In this document: piece after piece, positions 15,934-64,000 of the stretch
How the letters are laid out: every line of letters starts with the position of its first letter
Position numbering within the stretch: position 1 is the stretch's first letter
DNA from: Acidobacteriota bacterium
Lineage (GTDB): Bacteria > Acidobacteriota > Vicinamibacteria > Marinacidobacterales > Marinacidobacteraceae
Reading direction: 5' to 3'
Length of the DNA: 64,000 nt
Assembly (NCBI GenBank): GCA_022828085.1
Contig: JAJEIY010000046.1
Span: 556 to 64,555 of the forward strand
Translations under genes and position numbers: made by a program
The notes under the pieces: generated by a model
The model's input: only the letters and a program-made list of their open reading frames with translations
Databases searched by the model: none
Told to the model about the DNA's origin: nothing

Positions 15934-15940
15934 GGCTCCC

Positions 15941-28433: not shown

Positions 28434-31637
<3,204 letters not shown>

Positions 31638-31640
31638 AAG

Positions 31641-49163: not shown

Positions 49164-49167
49164 GTCG

Positions 49168-50049
49168 ATGCGCACCGGGGGGACCGTGGTCCTGCTCCTG
49201 CTGGGCCTCGGGACGCTCGCAGGTTGCGGTGGCGGCGAGGAAGCTCCCGCGCCCGTCGAAGAACCGGAGCCGGTCGAGGAGGCCCCTCCCGCCCCGGCGC
49301 CGGAACCGGCCCGCCCCGCCCCGCCGCCGGCTCCGCCGCCGCCGACCACGGGCGCTCTCCAGGTGGAGGGAACCGAAGGGGCCAGCGTGTCGCTCGGCGG
49401 CCGGGTGCTCGGGACCGTGCCGGGCGCCTGGGAGGAGCTGGAGGCGGGGGAGTATCCGATTCGAGTCGAGAAGGAGGGTTTCCATCCCCTGGAGGTCAAC
49501 ATCACCATCCGGGGAGGCCGGACGCGATCGCTGGCCGCGGATCTCATCGAAATGCTGGGATCCATCACCGTGGAAAGCGACGTGGCTGGGGCGAACGTCT
49601 TCCTGAACAGGAACTTCAAGGGAAACACGCCGGTGACCATCGTGGATCTGCAACCCGGCGAGTACAACCTGACGGTGTCGGTGGAGGGACACGACGTGGT
49701 CTCCCGGAAGGTCGCTGTGGGCCGGCGAGTCGTTCCGGTCCGGGTGGAGTTCGGCGACCTGGAGGCCACGCTGGACGTGCGGGTCGCTGTCGTCCACAAG
49801 CACCGCTTCGGATCGTGTGAGGGGACGCTCGTCGCCACGACGGAAGGGTTCGACTACCGGACGGATCACAAGGACGCCTTCCAACTGTCGTTCGGAGAGA
49901 CGGAACGTTTCGAGATCGACTATCTCGAGAACAATCTGCGACTCAAGGTGCGCGGGGGGCGTACCTACAACTTCGAGTCGCCTTCCGAGGATCTGGACTC
50001 GCTGTTCGTGTTTCACCGGGACGTCACCGCGTTTCGGGAGCAGCGGTAG
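49168..50049 (+). CDS. PEGA-domain lipoprotein
   Basis: Lipobox LLGLGTLAGCGG, a Pro/Ala-rich linker and three PEGA-like repeats (GEYPIRVEKEG, GEYNLTVSVEGHD). Confidence 0.6.
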   Translation: MRTGGTVVLLLLGLGTLAGCGGGEEAPAPVEEPEPVEEAPPAPAPEPARPAPPPAPPPPTTGALQVEGTEGASVSLGGRVLGTVPGAWEELEAGEYPIRVEKEGFHPLEVNITIRGGRTRSLAADLIEMLGSITVESDVAGANVFLNRNFKGNTPVTIVDLQPGEYNLTVSVEGHDVVSRKVAVGRRVVPVRVEFGDLEATLDVRVAVVHKHRFGSCEGTLVATTEGFDYRTDHKDAFQLSFGETERFEIDYLENNLRLKVRGGRTYNFESPSEDLDSLFVFHRDVTAFREQR

Positions 50050-50221
50050 GCGGCGCCGGTTTCTTGGTTCAGATCGGCTCTCGGACTGGTTCTTTACATA
50101 ATCATCCTTATCGGAAGCTCGCTCCGCACCTGCCGACGCCCGCGCGCGAAAGGACGCCCGGGCGCGGAATAGACGCGCACAGCGCTGGGCGGAGTCCCGC
50201 AGCACCCTGGTCATCACGGCA

Positions 50222-51553
50222 GTGATCCAGGACGAGGCGCGGCTCTCCCGCTGGGCCCAACTCGAATTCCCCGACGGAACGCCGGCGGAAGAGGCGCGTG
50301 CGCTCGTAGCCCTGATCCGGCGCGACGGCTGGCGCGTCCACAGGGGGGACGGCACCCGCCTGGTCATATCCGAGGTCCCCGCCAGCGACGATCCTCCCGC
50401 CGCACTGATGAAGGCGCTAAACGCCCCCGTGAATCCGGCGGGCCTCTCGGCCCTCGCGGAGGTGGTCGAGCAGGTTCGCGCCTGGGATTCGGGCTGGCAG
50501 GCGCGTTTCCCCGCCCGCCTGGAACGCTGGAACTTCAGCAAGGAGCAGCCTCCAGAATCGAGGTTGCTCGCCTTCCCCGGCCCCCAGGAGCCCGCCCCGG
50601 ACGAATTCCGGCCGGGCTACTTGCCGTTCAACGACGCGCCGACGCATCCGGAGGCGCCACCACTGCCTCCCGCACTTGCGGCGTTCGACTTCCTCGGTGG
50701 ACAGTCCATGCGCAGCGGACGCGGCGTGACCCACGAGGCCCGGCTCGTCGTTCACGTGCTCGGCAACCTGAGCCCGGCCGCACGCAAGAGCGGCGTCCTG
50801 ACTCCGCAGTACTTCTCCGCGGCCGAGATGGCGGCGGAATTGTGGGAGGAGATCCCCCGAGGGGGCCGGGCGATCCGGATGCTGCGCCGGGCGCTGGACC
50901 GCATGACGCGCCTCGAGGCCGGCCCCATCACACTTCCCGATGGATCCCTTGCCGCCCTGCGGCCCCTGATGATCGGCGCCATGCCTTACGGGCTCGACGG
51001 CTCGGTAGAGATCTTCGTCCGGCTCCCGCCAGACCCCGACGGGCGGGGCTTCCGGTACGACCGGCTGCGAGCCCGGCACTGGGCGCGGCGGGCGGCGCCG
51101 CACTGGCGGCTCTATTTCGCCGCCTGCTTCCTGCGCGACCGTTTCGCCATCGATGGACGGGGAATCGAGCTGACGATTCCCGAAGTGCAGCGCGGCCGCG
51201 GAGGGGTCATTCTCGACGCCGCCGGCAACCCCGTGTTCAGCAAAGGGCAGCCGGTCCTGGAGTGGCATCACCCGAAAGCGATCGCCACGGGGACGCGGCT
51301 CCCCAACCCCGCCGCTAGCCGCCTTCAGATCTATTCCCTCGCCGACCTTACCCGGGTTGCGTGCGGCCCTCCTCCGGACCATTTGAGCAAGGAGGGGCGC
51401 TACAAGCGCCGTGTGCGAACCGAGCAGGCGCTCACGGATCTCCAGGACGCGGGCGACCTGGAATTCGAACTCGCGGACGACCCGTGTGGCCGACGCCGCT
51501 TCCGGATCGCGGCCGTGGATCCTCGGCGCAGGCACCGCCGACTCATCGAGTAG
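50222..51553 (+). CDS. hypothetical protein; candidate iteron-binding replication initiator (assigned by position only)
   Basis: 443-aa ORF with coding-like GC3 and no family recognised by eye; ends 30 nt before six tandem iterons. Confidence 0.4.
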   Translation: MIQDEARLSRWAQLEFPDGTPAEEARALVALIRRDGWRVHRGDGTRLVISEVPASDDPPAALMKALNAPVNPAGLSALAEVVEQVRAWDSGWQARFPARLERWNFSKEQPPESRLLAFPGPQEPAPDEFRPGYLPFNDAPTHPEAPPLPPALAAFDFLGGQSMRSGRGVTHEARLVVHVLGNLSPAARKSGVLTPQYFSAAEMAAELWEEIPRGGRAIRMLRRALDRMTRLEAGPITLPDGSLAALRPLMIGAMPYGLDGSVEIFVRLPPDPDGRGFRYDRLRARHWARRAAPHWRLYFAACFLRDRFAIDGRGIELTIPEVQRGRGGVILDAAGNPVFSKGQPVLEWHHPKAIATGTRLPNPAASRLQIYSLADLTRVACGPPPDHLSKEGRYKRRVRTEQALTDLQDAGDLEFELADDPCGRRRFRIAAVDPRRRHRRLIE

Positions 51554-51585
51554 CCGAGTAGCCAACCCATCCCCGCAAGGGTTGT

Positions 51586-51709
51586 GTGTGTTTCCAGGGC
51601 GACCGGTGTGTTTCCAGGGCGACCGGTGTGTTTCCAGGGTCACCTGGTGTGTTTCCAGGGTCACCTGGTGTGTTTCCAGGGTCACCTGGTGTGTTTCCAG
51701 GGTCACCGG
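51586..51709. repeat. six tandem iterons: 2 x GTGTGTTTCCAGGGCGACCG (20 bp) + 4 x GTGTGTTTCCAGGGTCACC(T)G (21 bp)
   Basis: Direct tandem repeats read from the sequence (unit starts 51586, 51606, 51626, 51647, 51668, 51689). Confidence 0.85.
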
Positions 51710-51748
51710 CGTCTCGAAAACGCATGGCACTCTTGGCCTCGCGGATTT

Positions 51749-51808
51749 ACCCCAATTCTTCCCCAATTCCTTCCCAATTCCTCCCATATGGGGGAAGGGA
51801 ATTGGGGA
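51749..51808. repeat. three CCCAATTC direct repeats merging into an imperfect palindrome centred on CATATG (cccaattcctccCATATGggggaagggaattggg): origin/operator-like block
   Basis: Read from the sequence; locally AT-richer; adjacent to the iterons. Confidence 0.6.
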
Positions 51809-52081
51809 AGTGGACGTGCGACGAATTTCCACGCCACCAACACACGGAGCGACGGAGCCGACTTAGCGCGACTTCGTCGCGCGCCTCCGGTCGGGCTCCG
51901 CTTCGCGGCCCCTCCCTCTCCCGCCGCTCGCGCGGCGGGTCAACTACGAACGCGAAAACCGTTGCTGGACCGGCCCTGGGATGCCAGGAACATCACCAGA
52001 GCAGACCGGCGAATTCGCGCCGACGGCCCGGAGTGTGATAGATAACCGGCTCCGAACCCGAACCGGCTCCAAACCCGTGGC

Positions 52082-52109
52082 CACACACACACACACACAC
52101 ACACACACA
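52082..52109. repeat. (CA)14 dinucleotide microsatellite
   Basis: 28 nt of perfect CA repeats, 130 nt upstream of the primase-like gene. Confidence 0.9.
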
Positions 52110-52239
52110 GCAAGACCCGGACCAGGCCACGGCGTATATCCGGGCGCTTTATCCCGCTCCATCTGAACATCTCGCGCTAGTCGCGATCGACCGGGTCAAG
52201 GACCGCCACCCGGAACAGCGAATCCGACAGGCGCGAGCC

Positions 52240-52974
52240 GTGACCGCGCCGAAGTTCCAGGCGTGGCTTCGGGCTCTGAACGCCCAGGGCTACGACATCT
52301 TCGTGTCGATGAATCCCATCAACCCGGAGCGGCGACGCCGCGAGAAGCAGGACGTGGCGAAGGTGCGCCGGCTCCAGCTCGACCTGGACCGCAACGGCCC
52401 CGAGTCCCTGCATCGCGTGCTCGCCGACGTGCATGCGGGTTCCCTGCCCCGCCCCGCGGCTGTGGTCCGGAGCTCACGCCACAACTACCAGGTCATCTGG
52501 CACGCGGATCCGGACGTCTGGACCGCTCCGGAGGCCGAGGACACCATGCGCCGCCTGGCGGCCCGCTACGGGGGCGACTCCTCGGTCGCCGACGTCGCCC
52601 GCGTCATGCGTGTGCCGGGCTTCCGCAACAAGAAACCGGAGCGCGACGACGCGCCCGTGCAGTGGACCGACCACGCTGGCCGGCCGACGCGCCCGGATGC
52701 GTTCGCGCATCTCCCGAAGGTGGAGCATTCCCTGCAGCGCTCCCCCGGCACGGGACGTCAGATCGAGGGCCGCGACACCAGCCAGTCCGCCCGGGACTGG
52801 GCCTATGCCAAGGACCAGCTCCGCAAGGGCGTCCCCCAGGAGAAGGTCATCGCCGCGCTTGAGAAGCGCCGCGCCGGCGAGAAGCACGACCCCCGCTACT
52901 ACGCCGAGCGGACCACCCGCAAGGCATTCCTCGACATCCAGCGTCCGCGCGCGCGGGCGCTGCCATCCCGCTGA
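52240..52974 (+). CDS. RepB'-type DNA primase-like protein (plasmid primase family)
   Basis: Motifs LQLDLD (DxD), SSRHNYQVIWH and GGD..VADVARVMRVPGFRNKK resemble RSF1010 RepB'-like primase hallmarks. Confidence 0.5.
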   Translation: MTAPKFQAWLRALNAQGYDIFVSMNPINPERRRREKQDVAKVRRLQLDLDRNGPESLHRVLADVHAGSLPRPAAVVRSSRHNYQVIWHADPDVWTAPEAEDTMRRLAARYGGDSSVADVARVMRVPGFRNKKPERDDAPVQWTDHAGRPTRPDAFAHLPKVEHSLQRSPGTGRQIEGRDTSQSARDWAYAKDQLRKGVPQEKVIAALEKRRAGEKHDPRYYAERTTRKAFLDIQRPRARALPSR

Positions 52975-52995
52975 AACGCGAAAGGAGCAGCACAC

Positions 52996-53214
52996 ATGGG
53001 AATCAGAGAAATCGAGATCGAGGGCAAACCCGCCCTCAGCGTCGACACCGAGGAGGAGTTCGCTCAGGTCTTCGACCGCGGGCTGCCCATCGAGGCCCCG
53101 CGAGAGGTCGTCGACGCCTTCGGCATCCCCGGCGCCGACGAGAACGGCGACCCCCTCGACACCGACGAGCCTTCGGCTGAGTTTGACGACCTGGCTCTGG
53201 AGGACCAGCCCTAA
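52996..53214 (+). CDS. small highly acidic protein (72 aa; candidate DNA-mimic / anti-restriction protein)
   Basis: Strong RBS AAAGGAG 9 nt upstream. About 35% Asp+Glu (..DTEEEFAQVFD..DENGDPLDTDEPSAEFDDLALEDQP). Confidence 0.5.
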   Translation: MGIREIEIEGKPALSVDTEEEFAQVFDRGLPIEAPREVVDAFGIPGADENGDPLDTDEPSAEFDDLALEDQP

Positions 53215-53248
53215 CCGCGCGGAACCCCGCGCCGCATGAGTAACCAAC

Positions 53249-54334
53249 ATGGCCGAAGCCAAAGCCAACACTCGCGGCCGGGACCGCATCACCGAGTACC
53301 ACCAGCAGTTTGCCGCCGCGATCATCAAGCAGATCGAGGCCGGCACCGCCCCCTGGCAGCGCCCCTGGAAACCCGGCGAGCAGCTCCTTCCCCGTAACCC
53401 CTTCACGGGCAACCGATACACCGGCGGCAACGCCCTCGGCCTCGCGCTCGAGGGCGCGCAACGCGGCTTCGCCGACCATCGCTGGGCCACCTACCGCCAG
53501 ATCAAGGAAGCCGGCGGCCACGTCCGCAAGGGCGAACGCGGCGCACAGATCCTCTACTTCCAGAACCGGAAGCTGCTTGCCAAGAAGGACGACCAGGGCC
53601 GTCAAATGGTCGACTCCGACGGCCGCACCGTCTACGAACGCCCCGACAAACCGCGGCTCCTCGTCCGCGTCTACACCGTCTTCAACGCCGAGCAAGCCGA
53701 AGGACTCGACCTGCCCCCGCGCGACGCGACCGCGCCCGAGTGGCAACGCCACCAGGCGGCCGAAGCCGTGATCGAAACCTCCAACGTCCCGATCAAACAC
53801 GCACCCGGCAATCGCGCCTACTACAGCTCAAGAGCCGACCAGATCGTCCTCCCCGAGCGCCGCCAGTTCCCGTCCGCCGAGCACTACTACGCGACGGCTC
53901 TCCACGAGCTTTCACACGCGTCCGGACACAAGAGCCGGATGGACCGCGAGACCTTCCACAACGCCGTCAAATACCCCACGGGCGGCTTCGGCAGCGCGCC
54001 CTACGCCCGCGAAGAGCTCCGGGCGGAAATCGCCGCCATGATGACCGGCGAGCGCATCGGCATTGGCCACCACCCGCAGGACGGCCACTGCGGCAACAGC
54101 GCGGCGTACGTCGAGAGCTGGATCAAAGCCCTCAAAGACGACCCACGCGAGATCTACCGCGCGGCCGCCGAGGCCACCCGCATCTCCGACTTCCTCGTGA
54201 AGCCGGCCCGCGAGCGGATCCAGGAGATCGGCCGGGACGAGCCGTCCTCACCGGACGCCGCCGAGATGCGCGTTCCCGCGCTCACGCATCCGTCTCCCGC
54301 GCGGCAGCAGCCGGCCATGACGCCCCGACGATGA
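53249..54334 (+). CDS. ardC: ArdC-like antirestriction protein (N-terminal ssDNA-binding DUF1738 domain plus C-terminal zincin-like metalloprotease domain with an intact HExxH)
   Basis: ArdC-N motifs AGTAPWQRPW and RYTGGNALGLAL; C-domain YYATALHELSHASGH. Confidence 0.7.
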   Translation: MAEAKANTRGRDRITEYHQQFAAAIIKQIEAGTAPWQRPWKPGEQLLPRNPFTGNRYTGGNALGLALEGAQRGFADHRWATYRQIKEAGGHVRKGERGAQILYFQNRKLLAKKDDQGRQMVDSDGRTVYERPDKPRLLVRVYTVFNAEQAEGLDLPPRDATAPEWQRHQAAEAVIETSNVPIKHAPGNRAYYSSRADQIVLPERRQFPSAEHYYATALHELSHASGHKSRMDRETFHNAVKYPTGGFGSAPYAREELRAEIAAMMTGERIGIGHHPQDGHCGNSAAYVESWIKALKDDPREIYRAAAEATRISDFLVKPARERIQEIGRDEPSSPDAAEMRVPALTHPSPARQQPAMTPRR

Positions 54335-54395
54335 GCCTCCCATCTCATGCCCAGCCTCCGCGCGATCCCGAAACCCCCCACCAGGAGTAAGAATC

Positions 54396-55532
54396 ATGGC
54401 TGAAGCCACTCCTGCGTGGCGAAGGTTCCTGAGGAACCTGCGCTGGGGCAACCCTGGGAAAAACCGGGCCTGGGACGAGGGGGGAGTCAAGGTCGCCGGG
54501 CCCCCGGCAAGACCACCGACCAAAAAAAACGCCGCCCGCCCGCACCGCCTGGCCGGTAGAAGCCGAGAGTCCCACCTCCACGGCCCGCTGGGCGATTACT
54601 ACCGGATGTTTGCCGAGACCGCCATCCGGCAGATGGAGGAAGGCACCGCGCTCTGGCACTGCCCGTCAGAGGACGGGGAGCGGGTTCTGCCCCGGAACGC
54701 CGTCACTCACCGCGCCTACACCGCCGGCAACGCCATCTACCTGGCCGTCCGCGGCCAGGACCGCGGCTTCCGCGACAACCGCTGGATGACCCTGCAGCAG
54801 ATCAAGGAGGCCGGCGCCCTGCCGCCGGACGGACCCGGCGAACGGATCCTCGTCCGCCACGACCGCAAGGGCCAGAAGCCCGTCTGCCGCACCTCCACCG
54901 TCTACAACGTCGAGCAGGTCCGCGGCCTCAACCTCGAGCGGCGCATGCCGCGTCCGGCGGACTGGCTCGCGGAACGCGGCGCCGACGCTGTCATCGCCGC
55001 TTCCGCCGTCGAGATCAAGCACACCGACGAGCCCTATAGCTGGCCCTACTACCGCGGGAACCGCAACCAGATCGTCCTGCCCAACTGGAAGAAAACCGCG
55101 AGCAGCAACCACTACTACAGCACCGCGCTTCGGAACATAGCCTGCGCATCCACACACGAAGATCGAACGGACCGCTGGCCACCTCCCCGCGAGCTGCTGC
55201 GCGCGGACATCGCCACCATCACGGTCTGCGACCGGTTGGGGCTCGGCTACCAGCCGCTTGCCGAGAATCCGCAGGATATTCGCGACCCGACCGGGGCTCC
55301 CGACTACACGGAGGCCTGGATCAAGGCCCTCAAGGAGGACCCGCGCGAGATGCACCGCGCGGCATCCGAGGGCCACCGCATCGCGGAGCACCTCATCCAG
55401 CCGGCCCGCGCGCAGTTACGGAACATCGTCCGCAAGGCACACGCCGCGCTCGATGCGGAGATGCTCGAAGGCACATCCCCCGCCCGTCCGTCTCCCGTGC
55501 GCCCGCAGCCGGCCATGACGCCCGGACGATGA
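54396..55532 (+). CDS. ArdC-like paralog 2 (HExxH replaced by RNIAC; N-terminus divergent, possible frameshift near an A8 run at 54524-54531)
   Basis: Core FAETAIRQMEEGTALW...YTAGNAIYLAV is homologous to copy 1. The C-domain reads YYSTALRNIACASTHEDR and the C-terminus ..PQPAMTPGR parallels copy 1. Confidence 0.6.
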   Translation: MAEATPAWRRFLRNLRWGNPGKNRAWDEGGVKVAGPPARPPTKKNAARPHRLAGRSRESHLHGPLGDYYRMFAETAIRQMEEGTALWHCPSEDGERVLPRNAVTHRAYTAGNAIYLAVRGQDRGFRDNRWMTLQQIKEAGALPPDGPGERILVRHDRKGQKPVCRTSTVYNVEQVRGLNLERRMPRPADWLAERGADAVIAASAVEIKHTDEPYSWPYYRGNRNQIVLPNWKKTASSNHYYSTALRNIACASTHEDRTDRWPPPRELLRADIATITVCDRLGLGYQPLAENPQDIRDPTGAPDYTEAWIKALKEDPREMHRAASEGHRIAEHLIQPARAQLRNIVRKAHAALDAEMLEGTSPARPSPVRPQPAMTPGR

Positions 55533-55593
55533 GCCTCTCATCCCGTGCGCGGACCCCGCGCGATCCCGAAACCCCCAACCGGGAGTAACCAAC

Positions 55594-56586
55594 ATGGCCG
55601 AAGCCAAAACCTCTCCCTCGAAGCCCGCGATCGACTCGCCCAGCCGCTACTACGGGAAGTTCGCCGAGACCGCCATCCGGCAGATGGAGGAAGGCACCGC
55701 GCCTTGGCAGCGCGCCGCGAAGGCCGGCGAGCGGGTCCTGCCCCGAAACGCCATCACCCACCGCGCCTACACCGGCGGCAACGCCGTCTACCTGCCCGTC
55801 CGCGGCCAGGACCGCGGCTTCACCGACAACCGCTGGATCACCATGCAGCAGATCAAGGAGGCCGGCGCCCAGCCGCCGAAGGGGCCCGGCGAACGCATCC
55901 TCGTCCGCCAGGAACGCGACGGGCAGAAGCCCGTCTGGCGCACCTCCATCGTCTACAACGTCGAGCAGGTCCGCGGCCTCAAGCTCGACCGGCGCCCGCC
56001 GCGGCCGGAATGGCAGGCGCACCGCGGCGCCGACGCCGTCATCGCCGCCTCCGCCGTCGAGATCAAGCACACCGCCGGCGAACACAACTACTACAACAAG
56101 GAGCACGACCAGGTCGTCCTCCCCGAGCGGAAGCAGTTCCGGAGTCCGGAGCACTACTACAGCACCGCGCTGCGGAACATGGCCCACGCCTCCGGACACG
56201 AGAGCCGGATGGACCGCGAGACCTTCAAGCAGACCCACAGCGAGGGTCTGGACGGCGCGGCGCACGGCCGCGAGAAGCTCCGTGTCGAGATCGCCACCAT
56301 GACGGCGGGCGACCGGCTCGGCGTCGGCTACCAGCCGCAGCACGATCCCAGCTACAAGGAGCTCTGGATCAAGGCCCTCAAGGAGGACCCGCGCGAGATG
56401 CACCGCGCAGCCTCCGAGGGCCACCGCATCGCGCGGAACCTCATCAAGCCCGCCCGCGAACAGCTGCGGGGCATCGCCCGCGAAGCGCGCGCCGCGCGCG
56501 ATGCGGAGACGCCCGAACGCGCTCCCCAGGCCCCTCCGAAAGCCATGCCCCAGCGCCAGGTGCCGGCGATGTCCCCCGCGCGCTGA
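55594..56586 (+). CDS. ArdC-like paralog 3 (HExxH replaced by RNMAH)
   Basis: MAEAK.. start and a -35 to -1 upstream region conserved with copies 1 and 2; YYSTALRNMAHASGHESRMDRETF. Confidence 0.65.
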   Translation: MAEAKTSPSKPAIDSPSRYYGKFAETAIRQMEEGTAPWQRAAKAGERVLPRNAITHRAYTGGNAVYLPVRGQDRGFTDNRWITMQQIKEAGAQPPKGPGERILVRQERDGQKPVWRTSIVYNVEQVRGLKLDRRPPRPEWQAHRGADAVIAASAVEIKHTAGEHNYYNKEHDQVVLPERKQFRSPEHYYSTALRNMAHASGHESRMDRETFKQTHSEGLDGAAHGREKLRVEIATMTAGDRLGVGYQPQHDPSYKELWIKALKEDPREMHRAASEGHRIARNLIKPAREQLRGIAREARAARDAETPERAPQAPPKAMPQRQVPAMSPAR

Positions 56587-56595
56587 CCCCCGCCC

Positions 56596-57498
56596 ATGAG
56601 TCGCCGTCCGGAGCCCCGCCATCCCACCAGGCCGGCCGCCCCCCGCGGCCGCGAGCCTTGGCGCACCGGACACCGCCGGGAACACGGTTCCCGGGACGGC
56701 GCTCCCCGCGGCCGGGACCGGCGCGAAGGCGCGCTCGTGGACATCAGCGCCCATCGAGTCGCCGCCTACCAGGACATCGCGGCCGTCCACTTCGACGGCC
56801 ACCCCTACGCCGCGCGCGCCGGCATCAACCGCCTCAAGCGCGAGGGCCTCGTGACCGAGCATCAGGCGGACGGGCCGAACGGCGGCTCCTTCACTGTCCT
56901 GGCGGCGACCAGGAAGGGAGCCGCGGAGGCGCAGGCCGCCGCGGAGAGCCGCGGCGGCGCCGACGGACAGCACTTCTGGAGCGGGATCGGACGCCGCGAG
57001 GACCTCGCCCACGACGTCGCCGTCTACCGCGCCGTGCTTGCCGCCCGGGAAGAGCTCGCCGCCAAGGGAGTCGAGGCGCTCCGGGTCCGGCTCGACGCGG
57101 AGCTGCGCCGCATCGTGGTCCGGCGGAGCGAGCGGGCCCGGGCCCGGGCGGGGCGGAAGGCGGCCGACGCCGAACGGCGGCGCGCGGCCGCCGAGCTCGG
57201 ACTTCCCCACTCCCCGGAGGGGGCGGTGTCGTTCCCGGACGCGCAGCTCGAATACACCCTCGAGGAGGATGCCGGGGGACAGACGTTCGGCCGGGTGAAC
57301 ATCGAGGTCACCACCGAGCACTACCGCGAAGGCGCGATCGCGGCGAAGGCCGCGGCGGGCTTCGCGCTCCACGGCTCGAACGGCAAGGCCGGCCGCCTCA
57401 TCGCGAGAACCATCGCGAAAGCCTTTCGGGAGGCGGCAAGACCACAGCGCAGCGGCGGGGGGAGGGACCCGACACCGCGGGAGCTGATGGAGATCTGA
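56596..57498 (+). CDS. hypothetical protein (Arg/Ala-rich; start uncertain)
   Basis: ORF with coding-like bias between the ArdC triplet and the T4SS genes; no family recognised. Confidence 0.35.
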   Translation: MSRRPEPRHPTRPAAPRGREPWRTGHRREHGSRDGAPRGRDRREGALVDISAHRVAAYQDIAAVHFDGHPYAARAGINRLKREGLVTEHQADGPNGGSFTVLAATRKGAAEAQAAAESRGGADGQHFWSGIGRREDLAHDVAVYRAVLAAREELAAKGVEALRVRLDAELRRIVVRRSERARARAGRKAADAERRRAAAELGLPHSPEGAVSFPDAQLEYTLEEDAGGQTFGRVNIEVTTEHYREGAIAAKAAAGFALHGSNGKAGRLIARTIAKAFREAARPQRSGGGRDPTPRELMEI

Positions 57499-57499
57499 G

Positions 57500-57817
57500 A
57501 TGCATCCCTGGAAAGTGAGCGTCGGCGTCACCGTCGCGGTCACGGCGCTGGCCGTCTTCTTCGGGGCCTCCCACTTCGACTACCTCGCACCCTACCGCCG
57601 GGTCATCGTCACCGAGTACTGGTGGCCGATCACCCTCTACGCGGGCGCGGCCTTCCTCACCGTCGTCATTGCCGTCGCCGGGATCCTGCGGAGCCTGGGG
57701 CTCTACGACATCGGCCGGAAGGTCGACCTCGCGGAGCGCTCGGTTCGCCGCGGCGACGGCGATCCCGACCTTGCCCGCCGCCTTGCCGAACAGGAGCAGG
57801 GCGACTTCACCGACTAA
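57500..57817 (+). CDS. small two-TM membrane protein, hypothetical
   Basis: Two hydrophobic helices (VGVTVAVTALAVFF.., ITLYAGAAFLTVVIAVAGIL); immediately upstream of trbC. Confidence 0.4.
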   Translation: MHPWKVSVGVTVAVTALAVFFGASHFDYLAPYRRVIVTEYWWPITLYAGAAFLTVVIAVAGILRSLGLYDIGRKVDLAERSVRRGDGDPDLARRLAEQEQGDFTD

Positions 57818-57838
57818 CCCAACCCAGGAGGCTCTTCC

Positions 57839-58135
57839 ATGAAGCGCACCACATCCCATATCCGTGCGGCCATCATCCTGGCTGCCGCCGCTGTGCTCGT
57901 GCCGAGCGCCGCGTTCGCCACGATGGCAGGCACCAGCCCCTGGCTGAACGCCGTCTCGGTCCTCGAGACCGCCTTCACCGGCCCGATCGCCCGCGGCCTG
58001 TCCCTGATCGCCATCGTCATCGGCGGGCTGATGTTCGCCTTCGGCGAGGGCGGCTCCAAGAAGGCCCTGGCCGGGATCATCTTCGGCCTCGGCATGGCGA
58101 TGGGCGCCGTGAACTTCCTCGGCTGGCTCTTCTGA
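57839..58135 (+). CDS. trbC: TrbC/VirB2-family conjugative pilin
   Basis: Signal peptide plus two hydrophobic segments and a Gly-rich C-terminus (IAIVIGGLMFAFGEGG...IIFGLGMAMGAVNFLGWLF); RBS GGAGG. Confidence 0.7.
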   Translation: MKRTTSHIRAAIILAAAAVLVPSAAFATMAGTSPWLNAVSVLETAFTGPIARGLSLIAIVIGGLMFAFGEGGSKKALAGIIFGLGMAMGAVNFLGWLF

Positions 58136-58203
58136 CCCGTCCATACGGTATTGATCGTATGACGCCATACGGTATTGACCGTGCATACGGTCGGGCTTGA
58201 ATC

Positions 58204-58494
58204 GTGACCGGCAAGCGCGCCTGGCACGGCCACCCCGCCCTGAGCCGGCCGCTCACCATCATGGGGGTCGAGAGACGGTGGTTCCTGCTGTCTCTCACCC
58301 TCGGCCTGGCGATGTGGAACGCCATCAACTCGCTCGTCACGGGCGGCCTGATCTTCGGCACCCTCTACGCCGCCGGCTGGCTCGCCTGGCGCCAGGACCC
58401 GAACATGCTGTCCATCGTCGCGGCGAGCGCCACGAGCCGCGTCCGCTACGACGCCGGCAAGCCGAGCCTGTGGCACGTCGACCTCCTCGAATGA
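58204..58494 (+). CDS. VirB3/TrbD-family T4SS protein
   Basis: ~96 aa, two TM segments, overlapping the virB4 start (ATGA) in the typical virB3-virB4 arrangement. Confidence 0.6.
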   Translation: MTGKRAWHGHPALSRPLTIMGVERRWFLLSLTLGLAMWNAINSLVTGGLIFGTLYAAGWLAWRQDPNMLSIVAASATSRVRYDAGKPSLWHVDLLE

Positions 58495-60926
58495 ACCTCC
58501 AGGCCGAGCAGCAGGACTTTGCCGCGGCGGGCGCGCTCGCCGACGAGCTGCCCTACTGGGGCTGGCTGAAGGAACATCCCTTCTGCCTCACCCGCGCCGG
58601 CGAGTTCCTGGCGGCCGCCGAACTGGAGCCGGCCGTCCTGGACGGCCGCACTCCCGAGCAGCTGGACCAGGTGCTGAACCGCTGGCAGCGCCTGCTCTCC
58701 TCCCTCGACACCAGCACCCGGCTCTACTTCTACCTGCTCCGTCGCCCCGGCGTCCTGGGCGAGGTCACCGGCCTCGACGGCGTCGCCGCCCTCTCCCAGC
58801 GGAACCGGCGCGACTTCCTCCTGTCCCGGATCCACGACCTCCGGACGTTCGTCGTCTGGAGCCACAACCCCGGCCTCGAGCGGGCGGGTCGCTCCGGCCC
58901 CCGGGGCAACCACTGGCTGGTCGAGTACGCGCGCAACTGGCTCCGGGCGCGCCGTAACCCCCACGAGTCCGTCTTTCTCCTCGCCGAGGTGCGCCAGGCC
59001 GCCACCCGCTTCCGCCAGCTCGTCGAGGCCTCCGCCGCCCTCGCCAACGAGGTCACCCCGATCCGCCTCCTGCCGGCGGACGAGGCGACTCCCTTCCTGA
59101 GCGAACTCGTCAACCGTCCCGGCCTCGAGTGGCACGGCGACGCCGCGGCCAGCGCCCTCAACTGGCGGCTGCCGCTCTCCGAACTCGAAGCCGAGCGCCA
59201 ACACCTCCGGCTCGACGGCGAGCCCGTCATCCTCTACTCCCTCCTCTCGCCGCCGGCCACCGCCCGCGCCAACCTCCTCTACGAACTCGCCCGCATGGAG
59301 GCGCGGTTCACCCTGTCTCTCGAGTGGCGTCCCTACGCCCTCGAGGCCGCCCGGCGCAAGATCCGGAGCGCGCAGCGCCACTACTTCTCGAAGCGCTACT
59401 CCATGGCGGCGCACGTGCAGGACACCGAGGGCACGGCTTCGGCCATGGTCGATGCCGCCGCCGACGCCGAGGCCGACCGCCTCGGCGGCGCCCTCGTCGA
59501 GCTCGAGGCCGACGGCGTCGGCTACGGCGACGTATCGCTAACGATCGCGCTGCACGGTCCGCTCGCGGAAACGGAGCGCCAGGACGCTGAACTGCGCCGG
59601 ATCTTCTCCGGCTGCGACGCCAAGCTCATCCGCGAGGGCTACGGCCAGCTCGCCAGCTGGTTCGCGCGCATGCCGGCCATGCCGCGCAAGCGGCAGATCC
59701 GTTCCGTCTTCGCGAGCGCGGGCGTCGCCTCCTGCCTGGCGCCACTCTTCGGGCCCCCGCGCGGCCACCGGGTCAGCAAGCACCTCTCCCGGCCGGCTTT
59801 GGCCACGTTCGAGACTCCCTGGAAGACCTCGTATCACTACGACCTCTTCGCGGGGGCCGATGTCGGGCACACGCTCATCCTCGGCGCCACCGGCGCGGGC
59901 AAGAGCTTCACGCTCAACTTCCTGCTCGTCCAGGCCCTCCAGTACCAGCCGCGGGTCCTCATCCTGGACCTCGGCGGCTCCTACCGGTGGCTCACCCAGT
60001 TCCTGGGCGGCGGCTACCTCCAACTCGCCCCCGAGCGCGCCGACGGCGCGCTCGCCCTCAAGCCCTTCTCCCTGCCCTCCGGCGAGCGGACCTTCCAGTT
60101 CCTCACCGGCTGGATCACCCGCCTTCTCCGCATCGGCGGCTACGAACTCACCGGACGGGATCCGTCCGAGATCCGGAGCCGCGTCGAGGACCTCTACGCC
60201 TTCTCCGAGGCCCAGCGCTCCCTGTCCGCGTTCGTCTCCTCCCTGCCGAAGGGGATGTGGCCGGCCATGAGCCGCTGGCACGGCAACGGCGCCTGGGCCG
60301 CTTACTTCGACAACCCGGGCGCCGACGAACTGCAGCTCCAGGACTGGCAGGTCATCGACCTCGCCGGCGCCGCAGAGCACGAGGACCTCTGCGAGGCCGC
60401 GCTGTTCTACCTCCTCGAGCGCATGCGCCTCGCCCTCGAGAACCCGGACGAGGCGGCCCGCGTCAAGCTGATGGTCGTCGACGAGGCCTGGCGGTACCTC
60501 CGGGACCCCGCCATCCTCGCCTACCTCGCGGAGGCGGCGAAGACCTGGCGGAAGCGCAACGCCGCCCTCGTCCTCGCCACCCAGTCCGCGATCGACGTCA
60601 CCGCCAGCCCGGCGGCGAAGGGGCTCCTCGAGTCCCTCCCGACGAAGCTCTTCCTGGCCAACCCCGACCTCCCCGACCAGGTCGGCGAGATCTTCCGCCT
60701 CAACGAGACGGAGATGGCCACCATCCGCCAGCTCGTCCCCAAGCAGGAGCTCTACCTGCGCCGGTCCCAGTCCGCCGGCGTCCTCCGCCTCCACGTCGAC
60801 CCCGAGAGCTACTGGCTCTACACGTCCTCTCCCATCGACTCCGAGCGGCGCGCCGAGGCGGTCGCGGCGCACGGCCTCACCGGCGGCCTCGCCGCCCTCG
60901 CCAGACAAACGGAGCTCTCCACATGA
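58491..60926 (+). CDS. VirB4/TrbE T4SS ATPase
   Basis: Walker A GATGAGKSF, Walker B LMVVDEAW and CagE/TrbE-like domains. Internal ATG at 58491; the tool ORF start at 58197 is over-extended. Confidence 0.85.
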   Translation: MNLQAEQQDFAAAGALADELPYWGWLKEHPFCLTRAGEFLAAAELEPAVLDGRTPEQLDQVLNRWQRLLSSLDTSTRLYFYLLRRPGVLGEVTGLDGVAALSQRNRRDFLLSRIHDLRTFVVWSHNPGLERAGRSGPRGNHWLVEYARNWLRARRNPHESVFLLAEVRQAATRFRQLVEASAALANEVTPIRLLPADEATPFLSELVNRPGLEWHGDAAASALNWRLPLSELEAERQHLRLDGEPVILYSLLSPPATARANLLYELARMEARFTLSLEWRPYALEAARRKIRSAQRHYFSKRYSMAAHVQDTEGTASAMVDAAADAEADRLGGALVELEADGVGYGDVSLTIALHGPLAETERQDAELRRIFSGCDAKLIREGYGQLASWFARMPAMPRKRQIRSVFASAGVASCLAPLFGPPRGHRVSKHLSRPALATFETPWKTSYHYDLFAGADVGHTLILGATGAGKSFTLNFLLVQALQYQPRVLILDLGGSYRWLTQFLGGGYLQLAPERADGALALKPFSLPSGERTFQFLTGWITRLLRIGGYELTGRDPSEIRSRVEDLYAFSEAQRSLSAFVSSLPKGMWPAMSRWHGNGAWAAYFDNPGADELQLQDWQVIDLAGAAEHEDLCEAALFYLLERMRLALENPDEAARVKLMVVDEAWRYLRDPAILAYLAEAAKTWRKRNAALVLATQSAIDVTASPAAKGLLESLPTKLFLANPDLPDQVGEIFRLNETEMATIRQLVPKQELYLRRSQSAGVLRLHVDPESYWLYTSSPIDSERRAEAVAAHGLTGGLAALARQTELST

Positions 60927-61813
60927 TCCCCGGCTTCCCCGCGATCCCGCCCCGTCTCCTCCTCTTCCTGCTCGTGTTCCTCCTCTGCCAGGGGCTCGCA
61001 CCGCTCGCGGCGCCCCAGGACGGGCACATCCTCCGGCTCGACGACACCCCCGAGGACACCGTCTGGCGGCTCCAGACCCGCACCCGCCACACCACCGTCA
61101 TCACCCTCCCGCCGCACGAGACCATCCTGGACTTCGTCGTCGGCGACGCCGAGTACTGGCACCTCTCCGGCAGCGCCAACGTCGCCTTCCTCAAGCCGAT
61201 CGCGGACGATGCCGCGACCAACATCGCGCTGGTCTGCGAGTCCGGACGGATCTACACCTTCCTCGTCGCCGAGTCCGCAGAAGAGGAGCCCCACCTCGTC
61301 GTCCGCTTCCCGGCCGCCGGGCCGGACGACGGCACCACCGACGTCCCCGCGCCGACGGCCCGCGGCGCCCACGAGCCGGCATTCGTCGCCCGCTCCCGGG
61401 TCCAGTCCTACCAAGCCATGGCCACCCAGGCGCGCGCCGAGGTGCAGGCCGCCCGGGCCGACGCCGAAGAGCAGATCGACGCGGCCCGCCAGGCCGCCGC
61501 GGACGAGATCGACGCCTACCGCGCGGCGTATCCGCTCCGGATCGAGTTCCCCTACACGCTCGACAAGAAAGCCCGCGAGTGGCCCTTCCTGGTCGAGGCC
61601 ATGTGGCACGACGGCCAGTTCACCTACCTCCGGAGCCGCGCCCAGGAGTCCCCCGCGCTCTACGAGCGCAAGGACGGCGAGCCCTCCCTCGTCCCCTACG
61701 ACCTCACCGAGACCGGCCTCTACGTCGTGCGCCGCATCATCGGCGAAGGCTGGCTTCAACTCGGCAGGGAACGCGCCCGCTGGCGCTTCACGCCCCCGGA
61801 CCCCCTGCCGTGA
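60923..61813 (+). CDS. secreted VirB9/TrbG-like N-domain protein with an alpha-helical C-terminal half
   Basis: Signal peptide, then FVVGDAEYWHLSGSANVAFLKPIADDAATNIALVCESGRIYTFLV, which resembles the VirB9 N-domain signature (GD..W....N.F.KP.....TNL.V.T..R.Y.F.L). Overlaps the virB4 stop (ATGA). Confidence 0.45.
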   Translation: MIPGFPAIPPRLLLFLLVFLLCQGLAPLAAPQDGHILRLDDTPEDTVWRLQTRTRHTTVITLPPHETILDFVVGDAEYWHLSGSANVAFLKPIADDAATNIALVCESGRIYTFLVAESAEEEPHLVVRFPAAGPDDGTTDVPAPTARGAHEPAFVARSRVQSYQAMATQARAEVQAARADAEEQIDAARQAAADEIDAYRAAYPLRIEFPYTLDKKAREWPFLVEAMWHDGQFTYLRSRAQESPALYERKDGEPSLVPYDLTETGLYVVRRIIGEGWLQLGRERARWRFTPPDPLP

Positions 61814-62109
61814 ACATCGCTCACCGCTCCCCGCGCCGCTCGGGAACCCCCCTCGCGGAGACGGCCGGTCCTCCAGACCGTCCGGAGAGCGCCAGCCTTT
61901 CGCCCGGATGCCGGCGGCCACGGTGCGCAAACGCGCCTGAGACGCCTCCTGAGCGCACGGCCGGCCGGACGGCCCGCGTGCCGCGTACACCCCGGAAACG
62001 GCGAGAGACGCCCGTTTTCGGGCCTTCCCGGGCCATTTCCGACCGAAGCCGTGCGTCCGGAAGCCTCCGGAGCCCGCCTTTCGCGCCCGCGCCTGTCTGA
62101 CATCCCCCC

Positions 62110-63534
62110 ATGACCATTTGGAAACGCATCGCCGCCAGCCCCGCCGGCGCACCCCGCCGGCTCTCCCCGCTCGCCCTCGGCGCGATCCTCCTGGCAGAGG
62201 GCTACGCCTCGCTGGGGGCCGAGATCCTGGCGCTGCGGCGCATCGCCCCCTGGGCCGGGACCTCGGTGGACGTCACCACCGTGCTCCTCGCCGCCTACCT
62301 GGCCGCCCTCGCCGGCGGCTACCGCCGCGGCGGGCGCCTCGCCCGTGACGGCGACCCCCGCCCGCGGCTCGCGTTCCGCCTGACGCTCGCCGCGGCCCTC
62401 GCCGCCTTCTGGCTGTCCGAGCCCGGCATCCTGCTGGCCTTCGGCCTGCCGCTCCCCCCGCTGGTCCAGGCGGCCTTCTACGCGGTCGTGGGCATCGCTC
62501 CCGTCGGCTGGCTCCTCGCGGAGTGCGTTCTGCTGGCCCACGCCTGCGCGCCCACCGGCGAACGCTCGGCGACCGCCGGCCGCGTCTTCGCCCTCTCCAC
62601 CGTCGGGAACGTCGCGGGGGCGCTCGCCACGACGTTCCTGCTGTTGCGCTTTCTCGGTACCGCCGCCGCCGCACTCGTCCTCTGCGCAGGCCTGCTGGGC
62701 GCGGCCCTGCTGGCCTTCCGGCGCAGCGTCCCGCTGGCCGCCTGCGCGGCCGTTGCCGTCTTCCTCGCCGTCGACCTCTGGACCGAGGCGTCCGTCTACG
62801 TCGAGCGCAACGCCTACGCCGACTATCGCATTGCGGAGCGCGACGGCGGGCGGGTCCTCGAACTCAACCAGCAATGGGCCTCCCGCCATGACGCCGCCGG
62901 CAAGGGTTGGCCCTATGTCGAGCTCCTCGAGGCGACCCTGTGCGAGGCCGGCGAGACGCGTGTGCTGGTGCTCGGCGCCGGCGGGATGACCATCGGCCAG
63001 GGCGCCCCCTGCGCGCTCGAGCCGGTCTTCCTCGACCTCGACCCGGACCTGGAGCGCATCGCCTCCGACTTCCTGGACGTCCCCGAAGGCGCCGCGGGGA
63101 CCTTCCATGCCCGCGACGCGCGCGCCTTCCTCCGGGACGACCCCGGAGGCTGGGACGCGATCGTCGCCGATGCCTTCACCAACTGGCGCTCCGTTCCCCG
63201 CCACCTTCTCACCGTCGAGTTCTACGGCCTGGCCCGCTCCCGCCTCCGTCCCGGCGGCTCGCTCTACGTCAACCACGTCGCCCACGGCGATCCGGCCGGC
63301 GAGCGGCTGTTCCTCACCCGCGTCGAACGCACCCTCCGCAGCGTGTTCGCCGGCTGCGCCATGCGCGAGACCGGTCTGCCGCCCGGCACCGGCTGGCACG
63401 CCGCCGCCACCATCCCCCGCGGCCTCCTCTTCCGCTGCCTCCGGTCGGATCTCGACGGGGACCGCGCCGTCTACTCCGACGCTTTGCCGCGGGCTGACCT
63501 CGACCGCGGCCTCCGGCTGGGAGCCCCCGACTGA
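62110..63534 (+). CDS. polytopic membrane protein fused to a spermidine-synthase-like (class I SAM-MTase fold) domain
   Basis: ~7 N-terminal TM helices, then VLVLGAGGMTIGQG..DLDPD..F..WDAIVADAF..YGLARSRLRPGGSLYVNHV, typical of the SpeE-like fold. Confidence 0.6.
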   Translation: MTIWKRIAASPAGAPRRLSPLALGAILLAEGYASLGAEILALRRIAPWAGTSVDVTTVLLAAYLAALAGGYRRGGRLARDGDPRPRLAFRLTLAAALAAFWLSEPGILLAFGLPLPPLVQAAFYAVVGIAPVGWLLAECVLLAHACAPTGERSATAGRVFALSTVGNVAGALATTFLLLRFLGTAAAALVLCAGLLGAALLAFRRSVPLAACAAVAVFLAVDLWTEASVYVERNAYADYRIAERDGGRVLELNQQWASRHDAAGKGWPYVELLEATLCEAGETRVLVLGAGGMTIGQGAPCALEPVFLDLDPDLERIASDFLDVPEGAAGTFHARDARAFLRDDPGGWDAIVADAFTNWRSVPRHLLTVEFYGLARSRLRPGGSLYVNHVAHGDPAGERLFLTRVERTLRSVFAGCAMRETGLPPGTGWHAAATIPRGLLFRCLRSDLDGDRAVYSDALPRADLDRGLRLGAPD

Positions 63535-63540
63535 TGCCCG

Positions 63541-64000
63541 ACTGGAAGCAGATCGCCAGCAAGCCCGCCGGGGCGCTACCCGCCAACCTCGTCACCAAGG
63601 TCGGCGTCCTCCTCATCACCGTCCTCCTGCTCGCCCTCATCCTCAGCGCCTCGCTCTCCTCCGACGACCCCGAGGACGTCACCGGCGCCGCCCCCGGCGA
63701 AGCCGACGAGCCGGTCGTCGCTCCCGGCATGGCACGCGGCCTCCGGTCCCAGATCGAGCAACAGGAGCGCCAACAGGAATACCAGCAGCTGATCGAGGAA
63801 CGCGACGCGGAACGACAGCGGATCCGCGACGCGCTCGGCATCACCGGGGGCCGCCCGTCAACCGGGTCCGACGCGGCGCCTGCCGAGCTTCCCGCGGTCG
63901 ACCCCGATACCGGGGAGGAGCTCACCCCCGAGGAATACGAACTGCGGCAGGCCATCCGGCTCGAAGAGCTCGAACGCCAGCTCCGCTCGCTCCGGACCCA
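63541..64000 (+). CDS. TrbI/VirB10-like protein, N-terminal part (TM anchor plus Pro/Glu-rich and coiled region); truncated by window end
   Basis: TM VGVLLITVLLLALIL, then an acidic/Pro-rich linker and a coiled coil, in the position expected for trbI. Confidence 0.4.

Follow-up and report, generated by a model that had tools for sequence, protein, structure and literature searches.

A probable integrative and conjugative element in an uncultured Acidobacteria chromosome, with an attachment site that may lie inside its own replication initiator gene

The 64-kb stretch of DNA analysed here (hereafter the window; ~69% G+C, from contig JAJEIY010000046.1 of an Acidobacteriota bacterium) switches in content at 50.1 kb, where a series of housekeeping genes gives way to a plasmid-like conjugative module, all of whose genes lie on the + strand (genes were called by third-position G+C, GC3). 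An initial annotation of the window had placed this switch after a PEGA-domain lipoprotein gene and had described beyond it a candidate replication initiator (Rep), iterons, a primase, an acidic small protein, three ArdC-like genes, and a type IV secretion system (T4SS); we recover each of these at or near the position it had been given. As we argue below, the last 14 kb of the window very likely constitute the left end of a self-transmissible integrative and conjugative element (ICE) of ~37 kb in the chromosome of an uncultured member of the Acidobacteria, inserted at a palindromic attB site directly 3' of the PEGA-lipoprotein gene. We read the module as an ICE because of an 18-bp repeat shared by attL and attR, empty attB sites in relatives, breaks in sequence identity at both ends, and its content of T4SS and recombinase genes. 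Integration moreover appears, from comparison of the sequences, to cut the rep gene in two, such that the gene would be whole only after circular excision. The features of the window from the last chromosomal gene onward are as follows.

49147-50049, + strand: PEGA-domain lipoprotein gene (Pfam PEGA, E 3.6e-26), the last chromosomal gene before the element
50050-50101: spacer and B arm of attL; 50050-50087 is variable between relatives and 50088-50101 (GGTTCTTTACATAA) is conserved
50090-50114: low-GC junction, TTCTTTACATAATCATCCTTATCGG, 32% G+C against ~69% in the window
50102-50119: attL core, TCATCCTTATCGGAAGCT, an 18-bp direct repeat shared with attR and attB
50102-51553, + strand: body of rep, with the frame open from the core; the first canonical start is GTG 50222 (443 aa)
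51584-51707: six iterons, GTGTGTTTCCAGGGYSACCKG, at a spacing of 20-21 bp (Tandem Repeats Finder: 5.9 copies, 97% matches, score 202)
51750-51810: 11-bp repeats (CCCCAATTCCT) and an 18-nt inverted repeat, beside the iterons and less G+C-rich
52044-52109, + strand: early in the primase coding sequence, a tandem duplication of 17 bp and a (CA)14 microsatellite
52240-52974, + strand: RepB-type DNA primase (PF16793 RepB_primase, E 6.6e-23); the open reading frame (ORF) is open from 52042
52996-53214, + strand: acidic 72-aa protein (isoelectric point 4.05, 22 D+E against 4 K+R)
53249-54334, + strand: ArdC1 (ArdcN 1.4e-31, MPTase-PolyVal 4.3e-38), HELSH motif intact
54396-55532, + strand: ArdC2 (ArdcN and MPTase-PolyVal), HExxH lost
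55594-56586, + strand: ArdC3 (ArdcN and MPTase-PolyVal), HExxH lost
56596-57498, + strand: candidate relaxase (Replic_Relax / MOBC-like), 300 aa, borderline to PF13814
57500-57817, + strand: 105-aa membrane protein (TM105), conserved beside the relaxase candidate
57839-58135, + strand: VirB2/TrbC pilin (PF04956, E 7e-15)
58204-58494, + strand: VirB3 (PF05101, E 2e-9)
58491-60926, + strand: VirB4-type ATPase (P-loop_TraG and AAA_10), 52-68% identical to orthologs in related T4SS clusters
60923-61813, + strand: VirB9/CagX (PF03524, E 8e-25)
62110-63534, + strand: fused MFS/spermidine-synthase-like membrane protein (NF037959, E 1.8e-29), between virB9 and virB10
63534-64000, + strand: 5' part of VirB10/TrbI, first 155 codons (443 aa in the relative L002, on whose ortholog PF03743 gives E 7e-36)

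The initial annotation had flagged positions 50090-50110 as locally low in GC and had reported that the window held no att site. The low G+C is borne out, and a break in identity between relatives falls there; the attL core, however, lies inside that same junction. A direct repeat matching 50050-50220 had been proposed for the far end of the element, and an 18-bp copy of 50102-50119 does close it, as read in contigs of relatives (related loci are numbered here with the prefix L, homologous proteins with P): TCATCCTTATCGGAAGCT recurs identically at positions 14716-14733 of L050/L051, where it forms attR, and 16 of its 18 bp are common to the attR of L054/L055 and the attB of L053. Within the 64-kb window the core-like motif CTTATCSGAWG occurs as a single copy, at attL. 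Left of the core, attL matches the attB of L053 at 13/20 positions and the attR of L050 at 4/20; right of the core, attR matches attB at 26-30/40 positions and attL at 13-14/40. Each outer arm (left for attL, right for attR) thus resembles attB, and the two sites do not match one another in their arms, which is the pattern of Campbell-type integration. Alignment of the junction shows a variable spacer after the PEGA stop codon followed by 30 bp that are invariant in four genomes, and the TAA at 50099-50101 that ends GGTTCTTTACATAA and closes the rep frame belongs to the chromosomal arm. The predicted junction sequences are CATGGACCGGAC-TCATCCTTATCGGAAGCT-CGCTCCGCACC for attP and TTCTTTACATAA-TCATCCTTATCGGAAG-YYGCG...CTTTCGATAAGGAT for attB.

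Two relatives carry the same site without the element. The PEGA gene that adjoins the element in the window adjoins it also in L013-L016, and adjoins an empty attB in L052 and L053. In L052 (PEGA 70% identical), the genes parAB...FlavRed-PEGA are followed, after 615 bp, by CMD-E1_dh-Peptidase_S13...Amidase, so that this locus joins the left flank of the window to the right flank of L050/L054 with no element between them. In L053 (PEGA 86% identical), TTCTTAACATAA-TCATCCTTATCGGAAG-TCGCGAATGCGACTTTCGATAAGGAT directly follows the PEGA gene as an intact palindromic attB. On the chromosomal side of attB we also observed a repeat array in which CTTATCSGAWG motifs stand in both orientations (n=4 at L050 14790-14850, n=14 at L054 14080-14510), and variant core-like motifs (TTATCCGAAG, CATCCGATAAC) were spotted by eye at 10940-11300 of the empty site L052; the array could consist of REP-like palindromes targeted by the integrase, or of scars of earlier insertions.

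The element and its flank have different histories. Sliding identity between the window and L013 or L015 is about 90-93% for both up to ~50.05 kb; to the right of that point, identity to L013 rises to 96-99% and identity to L015 falls to 65-88%. The abruptness of the break at the junction indicates that the history of the element is separate from that of its flank, and a similar discordance at the other end, where the element's attP-side arm beside attR is 20/20 (100%) identical between L050 and L054 and the chromosomal right flank ~89%, likewise supports mobility. Synteny conserved across relatives had been named in the initial annotation as an observation that would speak against a mobile element. 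The parAB...PEGA-rep junction is indeed shared both with a locus whose Rep is 98% identical (L013) and with loci whose Rep is only 77% identical (L014-L016), but identity breaks exactly at the junction; that break, together with the polymorphism between occupied and empty sites, points to repeated or recent site-specific insertion rather than to ancestral synteny.

These observations also bear on whether the junction between PEGA and rep could be an assembly chimera of a chromosome and a free plasmid, as one might suspect of a metagenomic assembly in which the contigs of relatives often end inside the element. The same junction is present in at least four other independent assemblies (L013, L014, L015, and L016, at 78-94% nucleotide identity), the reciprocal attR junction is seen in four loci, and the contig ends map to the tandem ArdC repeats; we therefore assign a chimera only a vanishing probability. 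Hardly more credible is the view that the whole replicon is a chromid or megaplasmid and the module its own system of replication and transfer, despite the proximity of the chromosomal parAB (~3 kb upstream of the insertion site, and so of the rep-iteron-primase module) and the lack of an integrase in the window. The flank encodes mutS, a large histidine kinase, guaA, dnaE, accA, rpoN, and ptsI, and further an imuB-dnaE2 cassette, ssb, pal/tolB-like genes, an AAA_23/SMC-like gene, miaB, a bifunctional nuclease, parA, and parB, with AhpC, DsbD_N, OsmC, a flavin reductase, and the PEGA lipoprotein as the last genes before the element. The parAB and dnaE noted in the initial annotation are thereby joined by mutS, guaA, accA, rpoN, ptsI, ssb, and miaB in marking positions 1-50049 as chromosome; the same flank is found without the element in L052 and L053, and att repeats and an integrase bound the module. 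The suggested comparison with plasmid databases gave no match among the 72,556 plasmids of PLSDB, either by megablast of 50050-64000 or by tblastn of Rep. Chimera and chromid are both excluded; of the options that the initial annotation had left side by side, an integrated plasmid or ICE is upheld by the att repeats and the integrase of relatives, and a chromid falls with their empty sites.

Several other observations concern the window as a whole. Cumulative GC skew climbs up to 50 kb and drops beyond it, with genes on the + strand on both sides; the coding strand of the element is C-rich, and A-rich in 52-57 kb. The error-prone polymerase cassette of the flank (28434-33482, - strand) consists of an imuB-like gene with an IMS domain and dnaE2; another dnaE, of full length, occupies 15878-19567. 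The window has no tRNA gene, and no tRNA was found as an integration target.

The right half of the element is known from elements 94-98% identical to that of the window and from a short contig, L048, of the same sequencing run as L001; the latter, a Logan contig, is identical to the window over 61784-64000 and extends the window by 455 bp, further into VirB10. Over 8.7-10.4 kb, the elements on contigs of Acidobacteria metagenome-assembled genomes (MAGs) found with the extended VirB10, L002, L003, and L004, are 98%, 95%, and 94% identical to the window, respectively. No ORF tested in 50050-64000 contains an integrase domain, in agreement with the initial annotation, which had placed the integrase, along with the right boundary, the coupling protein, and VirB6/8/11, beyond 64 kb; all are found downstream in the near-identical relatives and the same-run contig. 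Following VirB10, the relatives encode a 302-aa protein, VirB6/TrbL, VirB8, three unknowns, a 788-aa coupling protein (TraG-D_C/TrwB in L002), VirB11, and a 182/234-aa protein. There follow, as read in L045, L050, L054, and L048, a cargo gene, AIM24, a ParA/VirC1-type ATPase with a 116-aa partner, AbiEii modules, a 321-aa tyrosine recombinase, another AbiEii, three unknowns, and a short ORF, and then a right flank of chromosomal appearance (Polyketide_cyc2, CMD, E1_dh, Peptidase_S13, amidase). The recombinase is XerC/D-like, carries the domains Phage_int_SAM_1 and Phage_integrase, and lies near the right end of the element (10001-10966 in both L050 and L054, and 7081-8046 in L048, which carries VirB11...ParA...Int). 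With VirB2, 3, 4, and 9 read in the window and the rest in L002, the T4SS set is complete (VirB2, 3, 4, 6, 8, 9, 10, and 11, plus the type IV coupling protein, T4CP). Summing offsets over a composite of the window and the contig of L002 places attR at window-equivalent ~87.3 kb and gives an element size of ~37.2 kb.

Two other placements of the ends were considered and rejected. A right end at ~20650 of L002, where L002 and L003 diverge and which would have made a 24-kb element with no integrase, proved to be a cargo swap, as both contigs continue through ParA...Int...attR. A weak resemblance of the left junction to the 3' end of the TonB_C gene was attributed to chance; a fuzzy search of the loci then collected found no second copy. 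The cargo position just after virB11 is a hot spot, occupied by a GIY-YIG nuclease/TonB_C fusion (L045 10719-12077; L048) in the element of L002 and by an unrelated 141-aa gene (L054 1974-2399) in that of L003. A recombinase 87% identical to the element's integrase (P0029) occurs on a 9-kb contig binned as Gammaproteobacteria, which reflects either spread of the integrase module across phyla or a binning error.

One might also regard the locus as the relic of an ICE, decaying or domesticated, that now passes on only by vertical descent along with its chromosome. The occupation of the same insertion site in relatives whose Rep is only 77% identical would fit such a history, as would a primase start codon that is out of frame in the window, the loss of HExxH from two of the three ArdC copies, a frameshift in unk234 between copies, and the lack of any sighting of a circular form (the one search for the attP junction pattern, in viral contigs, found no match). 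We nevertheless consider a remnant unlikely: at either end the element and its flank differ in how similar they are to relatives, attB is occupied in some close relatives and empty in others, the T4SS, T4CP, and integrase ORFs are all intact (GC3 0.85-0.92), and the MAGs that bear the 94-98% identical elements are separate species representatives.

The Rep encoded immediately inside attL has no match in Pfam or NCBIfam, nor did a sequence search of the PDB with Rep and the Rep family profile give any significant match. It belongs nonetheless to a sizeable family, of which a word-indexed search found 9 homologs and an exhaustive profile (hidden Markov model) search 465, 244 of them at E <= 1e-10; members are mostly of 450-600 aa, and none of 60 sampled members has a Pfam domain. 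Distant homologs (55-59% identical) occur in small islands composed of an integrase, DUF7146, an AAA_25 helicase, and the Rep homolog, a context of replication modules. An AlphaFold (AF2) model built on a 60-sequence alignment reached a mean confidence (pLDDT) of 78.6, and above 85 for residues 160-443; an earlier model from a 10-sequence alignment (pLDDT 43) was unusable. The top PDB folds matched by the later model using Foldseek are almost exclusively RepE54-iteron complexes and the complex of Rep with a DNA unwinding element, 8ac8 (~250-277 columns, probability up to 0.94, E ~0.07, target-normalised TM ~0.5), and among viral proteins it best matches a COG5527 protein ('initiation of plasmid replication'; E 0.013, probability 1.0). 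These scores are modest yet consistent, and we consider it probable that Rep is an iteron-binding initiator of a new sequence family. The six iterons just downstream of rep would then be the candidate Rep-binding part of an origin of vegetative replication (oriV); L013, L015, L016, and L044 retain their core, GTGTTTCCAG, whereas the sequences on either side of it vary in step with the divergence of Rep. The adjoining repeats at 51750-51810, which are conserved in L013, L015, and L016, are a candidate unwinding region.

The position of the attL core within the open frame of rep raises the possibility that attP lies inside the gene. Homologs of Rep share a basic N-terminal motif, ARxxAxAxxxxAxxWAxxxR...AAV, which is common to the window, P0002, P0006, P0007, and P0158, and which in distant homologs stands at the extreme N-terminus. 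The window encodes this motif at 50120-50221, in frame with rep and upstream of GTG 50222, and a 3-nt indel in the motif region keeps the frame among the window, L013, and L015. Between the flank-derived TAA at 50099-50101 and the motif there is no ATG, GTG, or TTG, the first start being GTG 50222. At the other end of the element, an ATG-started ORF in L050 and L054 runs to attR, encodes MSTPPKDCPDCGDTCW...CPAC...PVKHRQRPPAARARNAAHGPD, a Zn-ribbon-like stretch, and reads in frame into the core (SSLSEA). When the circle is closed in silico by joining the attR-side arm of either L050 or L054 to the core and to the post-core sequence of the window, one uninterrupted ORF of 585 aa results, beginning at the ATG. 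A TARA scaffold, L044, offers a natural comparison, as it holds the upstream segment contiguous with an intact rep, whose annotated product (P0002, 500 aa) reaches 56 aa into that segment; over the Zn-ribbon part, L044 and L050 differ mainly at synonymous positions. That the start codon of rep lies on the far side of attP seems robust as a prediction; we are less sure of a fusion between the Zn-ribbon and Rep. We lean slightly towards a switch in which integration splits rep and excision would restore it.

As a locus in its own right, L044 (1-4638) has a rep 78% identical to that of the window, with no att core, and also carries a rep 3' end and ori remnant at 301-897 and a homolog of the 141-aa cargo gene of L003. 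It may be an unintegrated or a rearranged relative.

A number of points weigh against the interpretation as an ICE with a split rep. By our estimate, an open frame of ~100 codons has about a 1-in-8 chance of arising in DNA of 70% G+C, and the codon-position G+C of the attR-side ORF is atypical; just 2 of 118 members of the Rep family carry the Zn-ribbon (which was for that reason rejected as a family-wide Rep N-terminus); a 13-nt length difference in L044 leaves the frame of the Zn-ribbon ORF out of register with that of rep; and the attR-side arm contains no promoter by strict consensus, while read-through from the PEGA gene is a possible source of a shorter Rep starting at GTG 50222. The fold match of Rep is modest (Foldseek E 0.01-0.1, target-normalised TM ~0.4-0.5), no DnaA box (within 1 mismatch) occurs near the iterons, and the displaced primase start may mean that the copy in the window is impaired. 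As to the element as a whole, its attR and integrase were read in the elements of relatives and, for the integrase, also in the short same-run contig, rather than in the window's own contig, and the relaxase candidate scores 25.2 bits against a PF13814 cut-off of 25.3, with 5 of 14 homologs matching the model.

The chief alternative grants that the locus is an ICE and holds that rep is unsplit: Rep would be the 443-aa product from GTG 50222, the attR-side ORF a separate small Zn-ribbon gene, and the continuity across attP a coincidence. Gene callers do begin Rep at this GTG in P0001, P0003, and P0004, the rep of L044 has an ATG of its own in a frame that differs from that of the Zn-ribbon ORF, 116 of the 118 family members do without the Zn-ribbon, and long open frames are common at 70% G+C. 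An unsplit gene accounts poorly, however, for the encoding upstream of the GTG of a basic motif that forms the N-terminal end of distant homologs and is conserved in frame, including across the 3-nt indel; for the location in L044 of the rep ATG and first ~56 codons within sequence homologous to the attR-side arm; and for the same uninterrupted 585-aa ORF emerging from both attR-side arms tested. We regard it as a serious possibility, although one on the lesser side of even.

Taken as a whole, the explanation that we strongly favour is an ICE, with a slighter lean towards a split rep in its life cycle; excision, replication, and transfer are inferred from gene content and sequence. In the integrated state, the 5' segment of rep (with the ATG, the part resembling a Zn-ribbon, and the first residues of the basic N-terminus) would adjoin attR, and the body of the gene would adjoin attL. 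The recombinase would join attL and attR to form a circle in which attP, lying within the rep frame, connects the two parts, so that full-length Rep (585 aa) would be made only in the circle. There it would bind the six iterons and start theta replication together with the RepB-type primase, with ParA partitioning the circle; the MOBC-like relaxase candidate, the T4CP, and the T4SS would transfer the element, and ArdC would protect the incoming strand. Re-integration would split rep again and so silence the oriV now placed in the chromosome.

Turning to the remaining genes of the module, the repeat in the primase gene varies in length between relatives, from 14 CA units in the window to 12 in L014/L015, 9 in the remnant in L044, and 7 in L013 (compare L013 11650-12050 and L015 11650-12100). 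The primase GTG start (GTGATAGATAAC) is conserved, and is in frame in the relatives and out of frame in the window only; this could reflect slipped-strand phase variation or decay of the copy in the window. The 72-aa acidic protein that follows has no family match in Pfam or NCBIfam; of Rep and the other uncharacterised ORFs searched there, just the MFS/spermidine-synthase fusion was matched. All three ArdC paralogs, which are 45-68% identical to each other, exceed the Pfam cut-offs for both the ssDNA-binding N-domain and the metalloprotease domain. Their number varies, with two in L003 and one plus a fragment and an HNH gene in L013, and short-read contigs tend to end at these tandem genes.

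The initial annotation had presumed the relaxase to lie beyond the window, and the borderline candidate at 56596-57498 suggests otherwise. PF13814 corresponds to the MobC class of CONJscan (PMC5357655), and in every related element, whether on Bryobacterales chromosomes or on contigs from marine metagenomes, the candidate is linked to the T4SS/T4CP. The alignment of homologs of this putative nicking protein has conserved PD...E-x-(T/A) and Y-R motifs, in which PD...E and Y-R are invariant; a PDB sequence search with the candidate and with unk407 gave no significant match, and the relaxase assignment is uncertain. Among the transfer genes, the MFS/spermidine-synthase gene is an odd cargo for a T4SS operon; it stands after virB8 in L005 and is absent from L017-type elements.

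ICEs are well known, and the existence of one at this locus is in itself ordinary. The present case adds an ICE from uncultured Acidobacteriota that is delimited by attL, attR, attB, and an empty site, with relatives in several MAGs and in Bryobacterales chromosomes; its combination of an iteron-type replicon, partition genes, and site-specific integration contributes to the evidence for a continuum between ICEs and plasmids; and its uncharacterised Rep family, with 465 matches and no Pfam domain, is a useful target for annotation. A split rep, if true, would be a simple structural answer to the harm that an active initiator has been hypothesised, for SGI1, to cause on an integrated origin, and would give a parallel, in bacteria and with another gene, to the splitting of genes on integration that has so far been described for archaeal SSV-type integrases. 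The fullest form of the proposal, a bacterial ICE with its attachment site inside its own initiator gene, replication hard-wired to excision, and a hitherto undescribed family comprising at least 465 Rep proteins with a dual winged-helix fold, seems to us evenly poised.

Among the nearest known systems are sister ICEs of Acidobacteriota (L017, L019, L022-L025), whose VirB11 is ~70% and VirB4 52-68% identical to those described here, with distant versions in Bryobacterales chromosomes (L006-L011). They share orthologous VirB4/9/10/6/8, unk407, T4CP, VirB11, ArdC, relaxase candidate, and TM105, and likewise lie beside chromosomal genes, in the order VirB4...VirB11-ArdC-relaxase candidate-TM105-DUF5906 primase-helicase-tyrosine integrase-chromosomal genes. 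They differ in that TM105 is followed at once by a DUF5906 primase-helicase and a tyrosine integrase (407-511 aa), and in lacking the rep-iteron-RepB module. The block ArdC-relaxase-TM105 is circularly permuted relative to the window, as would be expected of the same circular backbone opened at a different point. In one case (L019/L025, JGI contig Ga0209544_1000408), two related ICE copies stand head to head, and the ~5.4 kb between them carry a tyrosine integrase and a DUF5906 primase-helicase.

Tn4371-like ICEs combine a VirB/Trb-type (MPF-T-like) T4SS with a tyrosine recombinase and plasmid-like maintenance genes. Compared by features rather than by sequence, the element resembles them in its direct-repeat-flanked insertion, terminal tyrosine recombinase, T4SS with coupling protein, ParA-type gene (ParA/ParB have been noted in Tn4371-like ICEs; PMC4489591), and replication-type genes; it differs in its MOBC-like candidate relaxase, its uncharacterised Rep family, and a proposed attP inside rep. 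Among initiators, the dual winged-helix proteins of the RepE (mini-F) type (PDB 1rep, 8ac8) are the best structural matches to the model of Rep and are similarly encoded beside tandem iterons. Rep, in contrast, has no sequence match to Rep_3 or any Pfam family, and at 443-585 aa is about twice as long as their ~250 aa, with fold scores that are modest.

The RepA-oriV system of SGI1 (PMC7826253) is alike in being integrative and in having, after rep, direct repeats of the iteron type together with an inverted repeat. SGI1 replicates only after excision (PMC7826253), and the same coupling is proposed here; the authors of that study hypothesise that the host would be harmed or killed by active RepA if the cognate oriV sat in its chromosome (PMC7826253), a precedent for the biological logic of a split rep. 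SGI1 is, however, mobilisable rather than self-transmissible, and its repA remains whole in the integrated state, where its transcription is induced by AcaCD of the helper plasmid, whereas the control proposed here would be a physical separation of the 5' end of rep from its body. The 'suicidal' SSV-type integrases of archaeal viruses and plasmids offer the parallel of a recombination site inside a gene of the element, which integration fragments and excision restores, and such gene splitting has been described as occurring in archaea alone (PMC8371274). In those systems it is the integrase gene itself that is split; here, it would be the gene for the replication initiator of a bacterial ICE, with the integrase intact.

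Circularisation is also known to alter expression at the ends of other elements. In Tn916, transcription proceeds across the circular joint. In PAPI-1, according to the passage of PMC4489591 that cites Qiu et al. 2006, soj is stimulated on excision. Both examples couple a promoter to intact genes, whereas in the present element a coding sequence would be reassembled. Set among these systems, the element adds a new ICE to a general kind already known, and is distinguished by its new Rep family and by the likely placement of attP inside rep.

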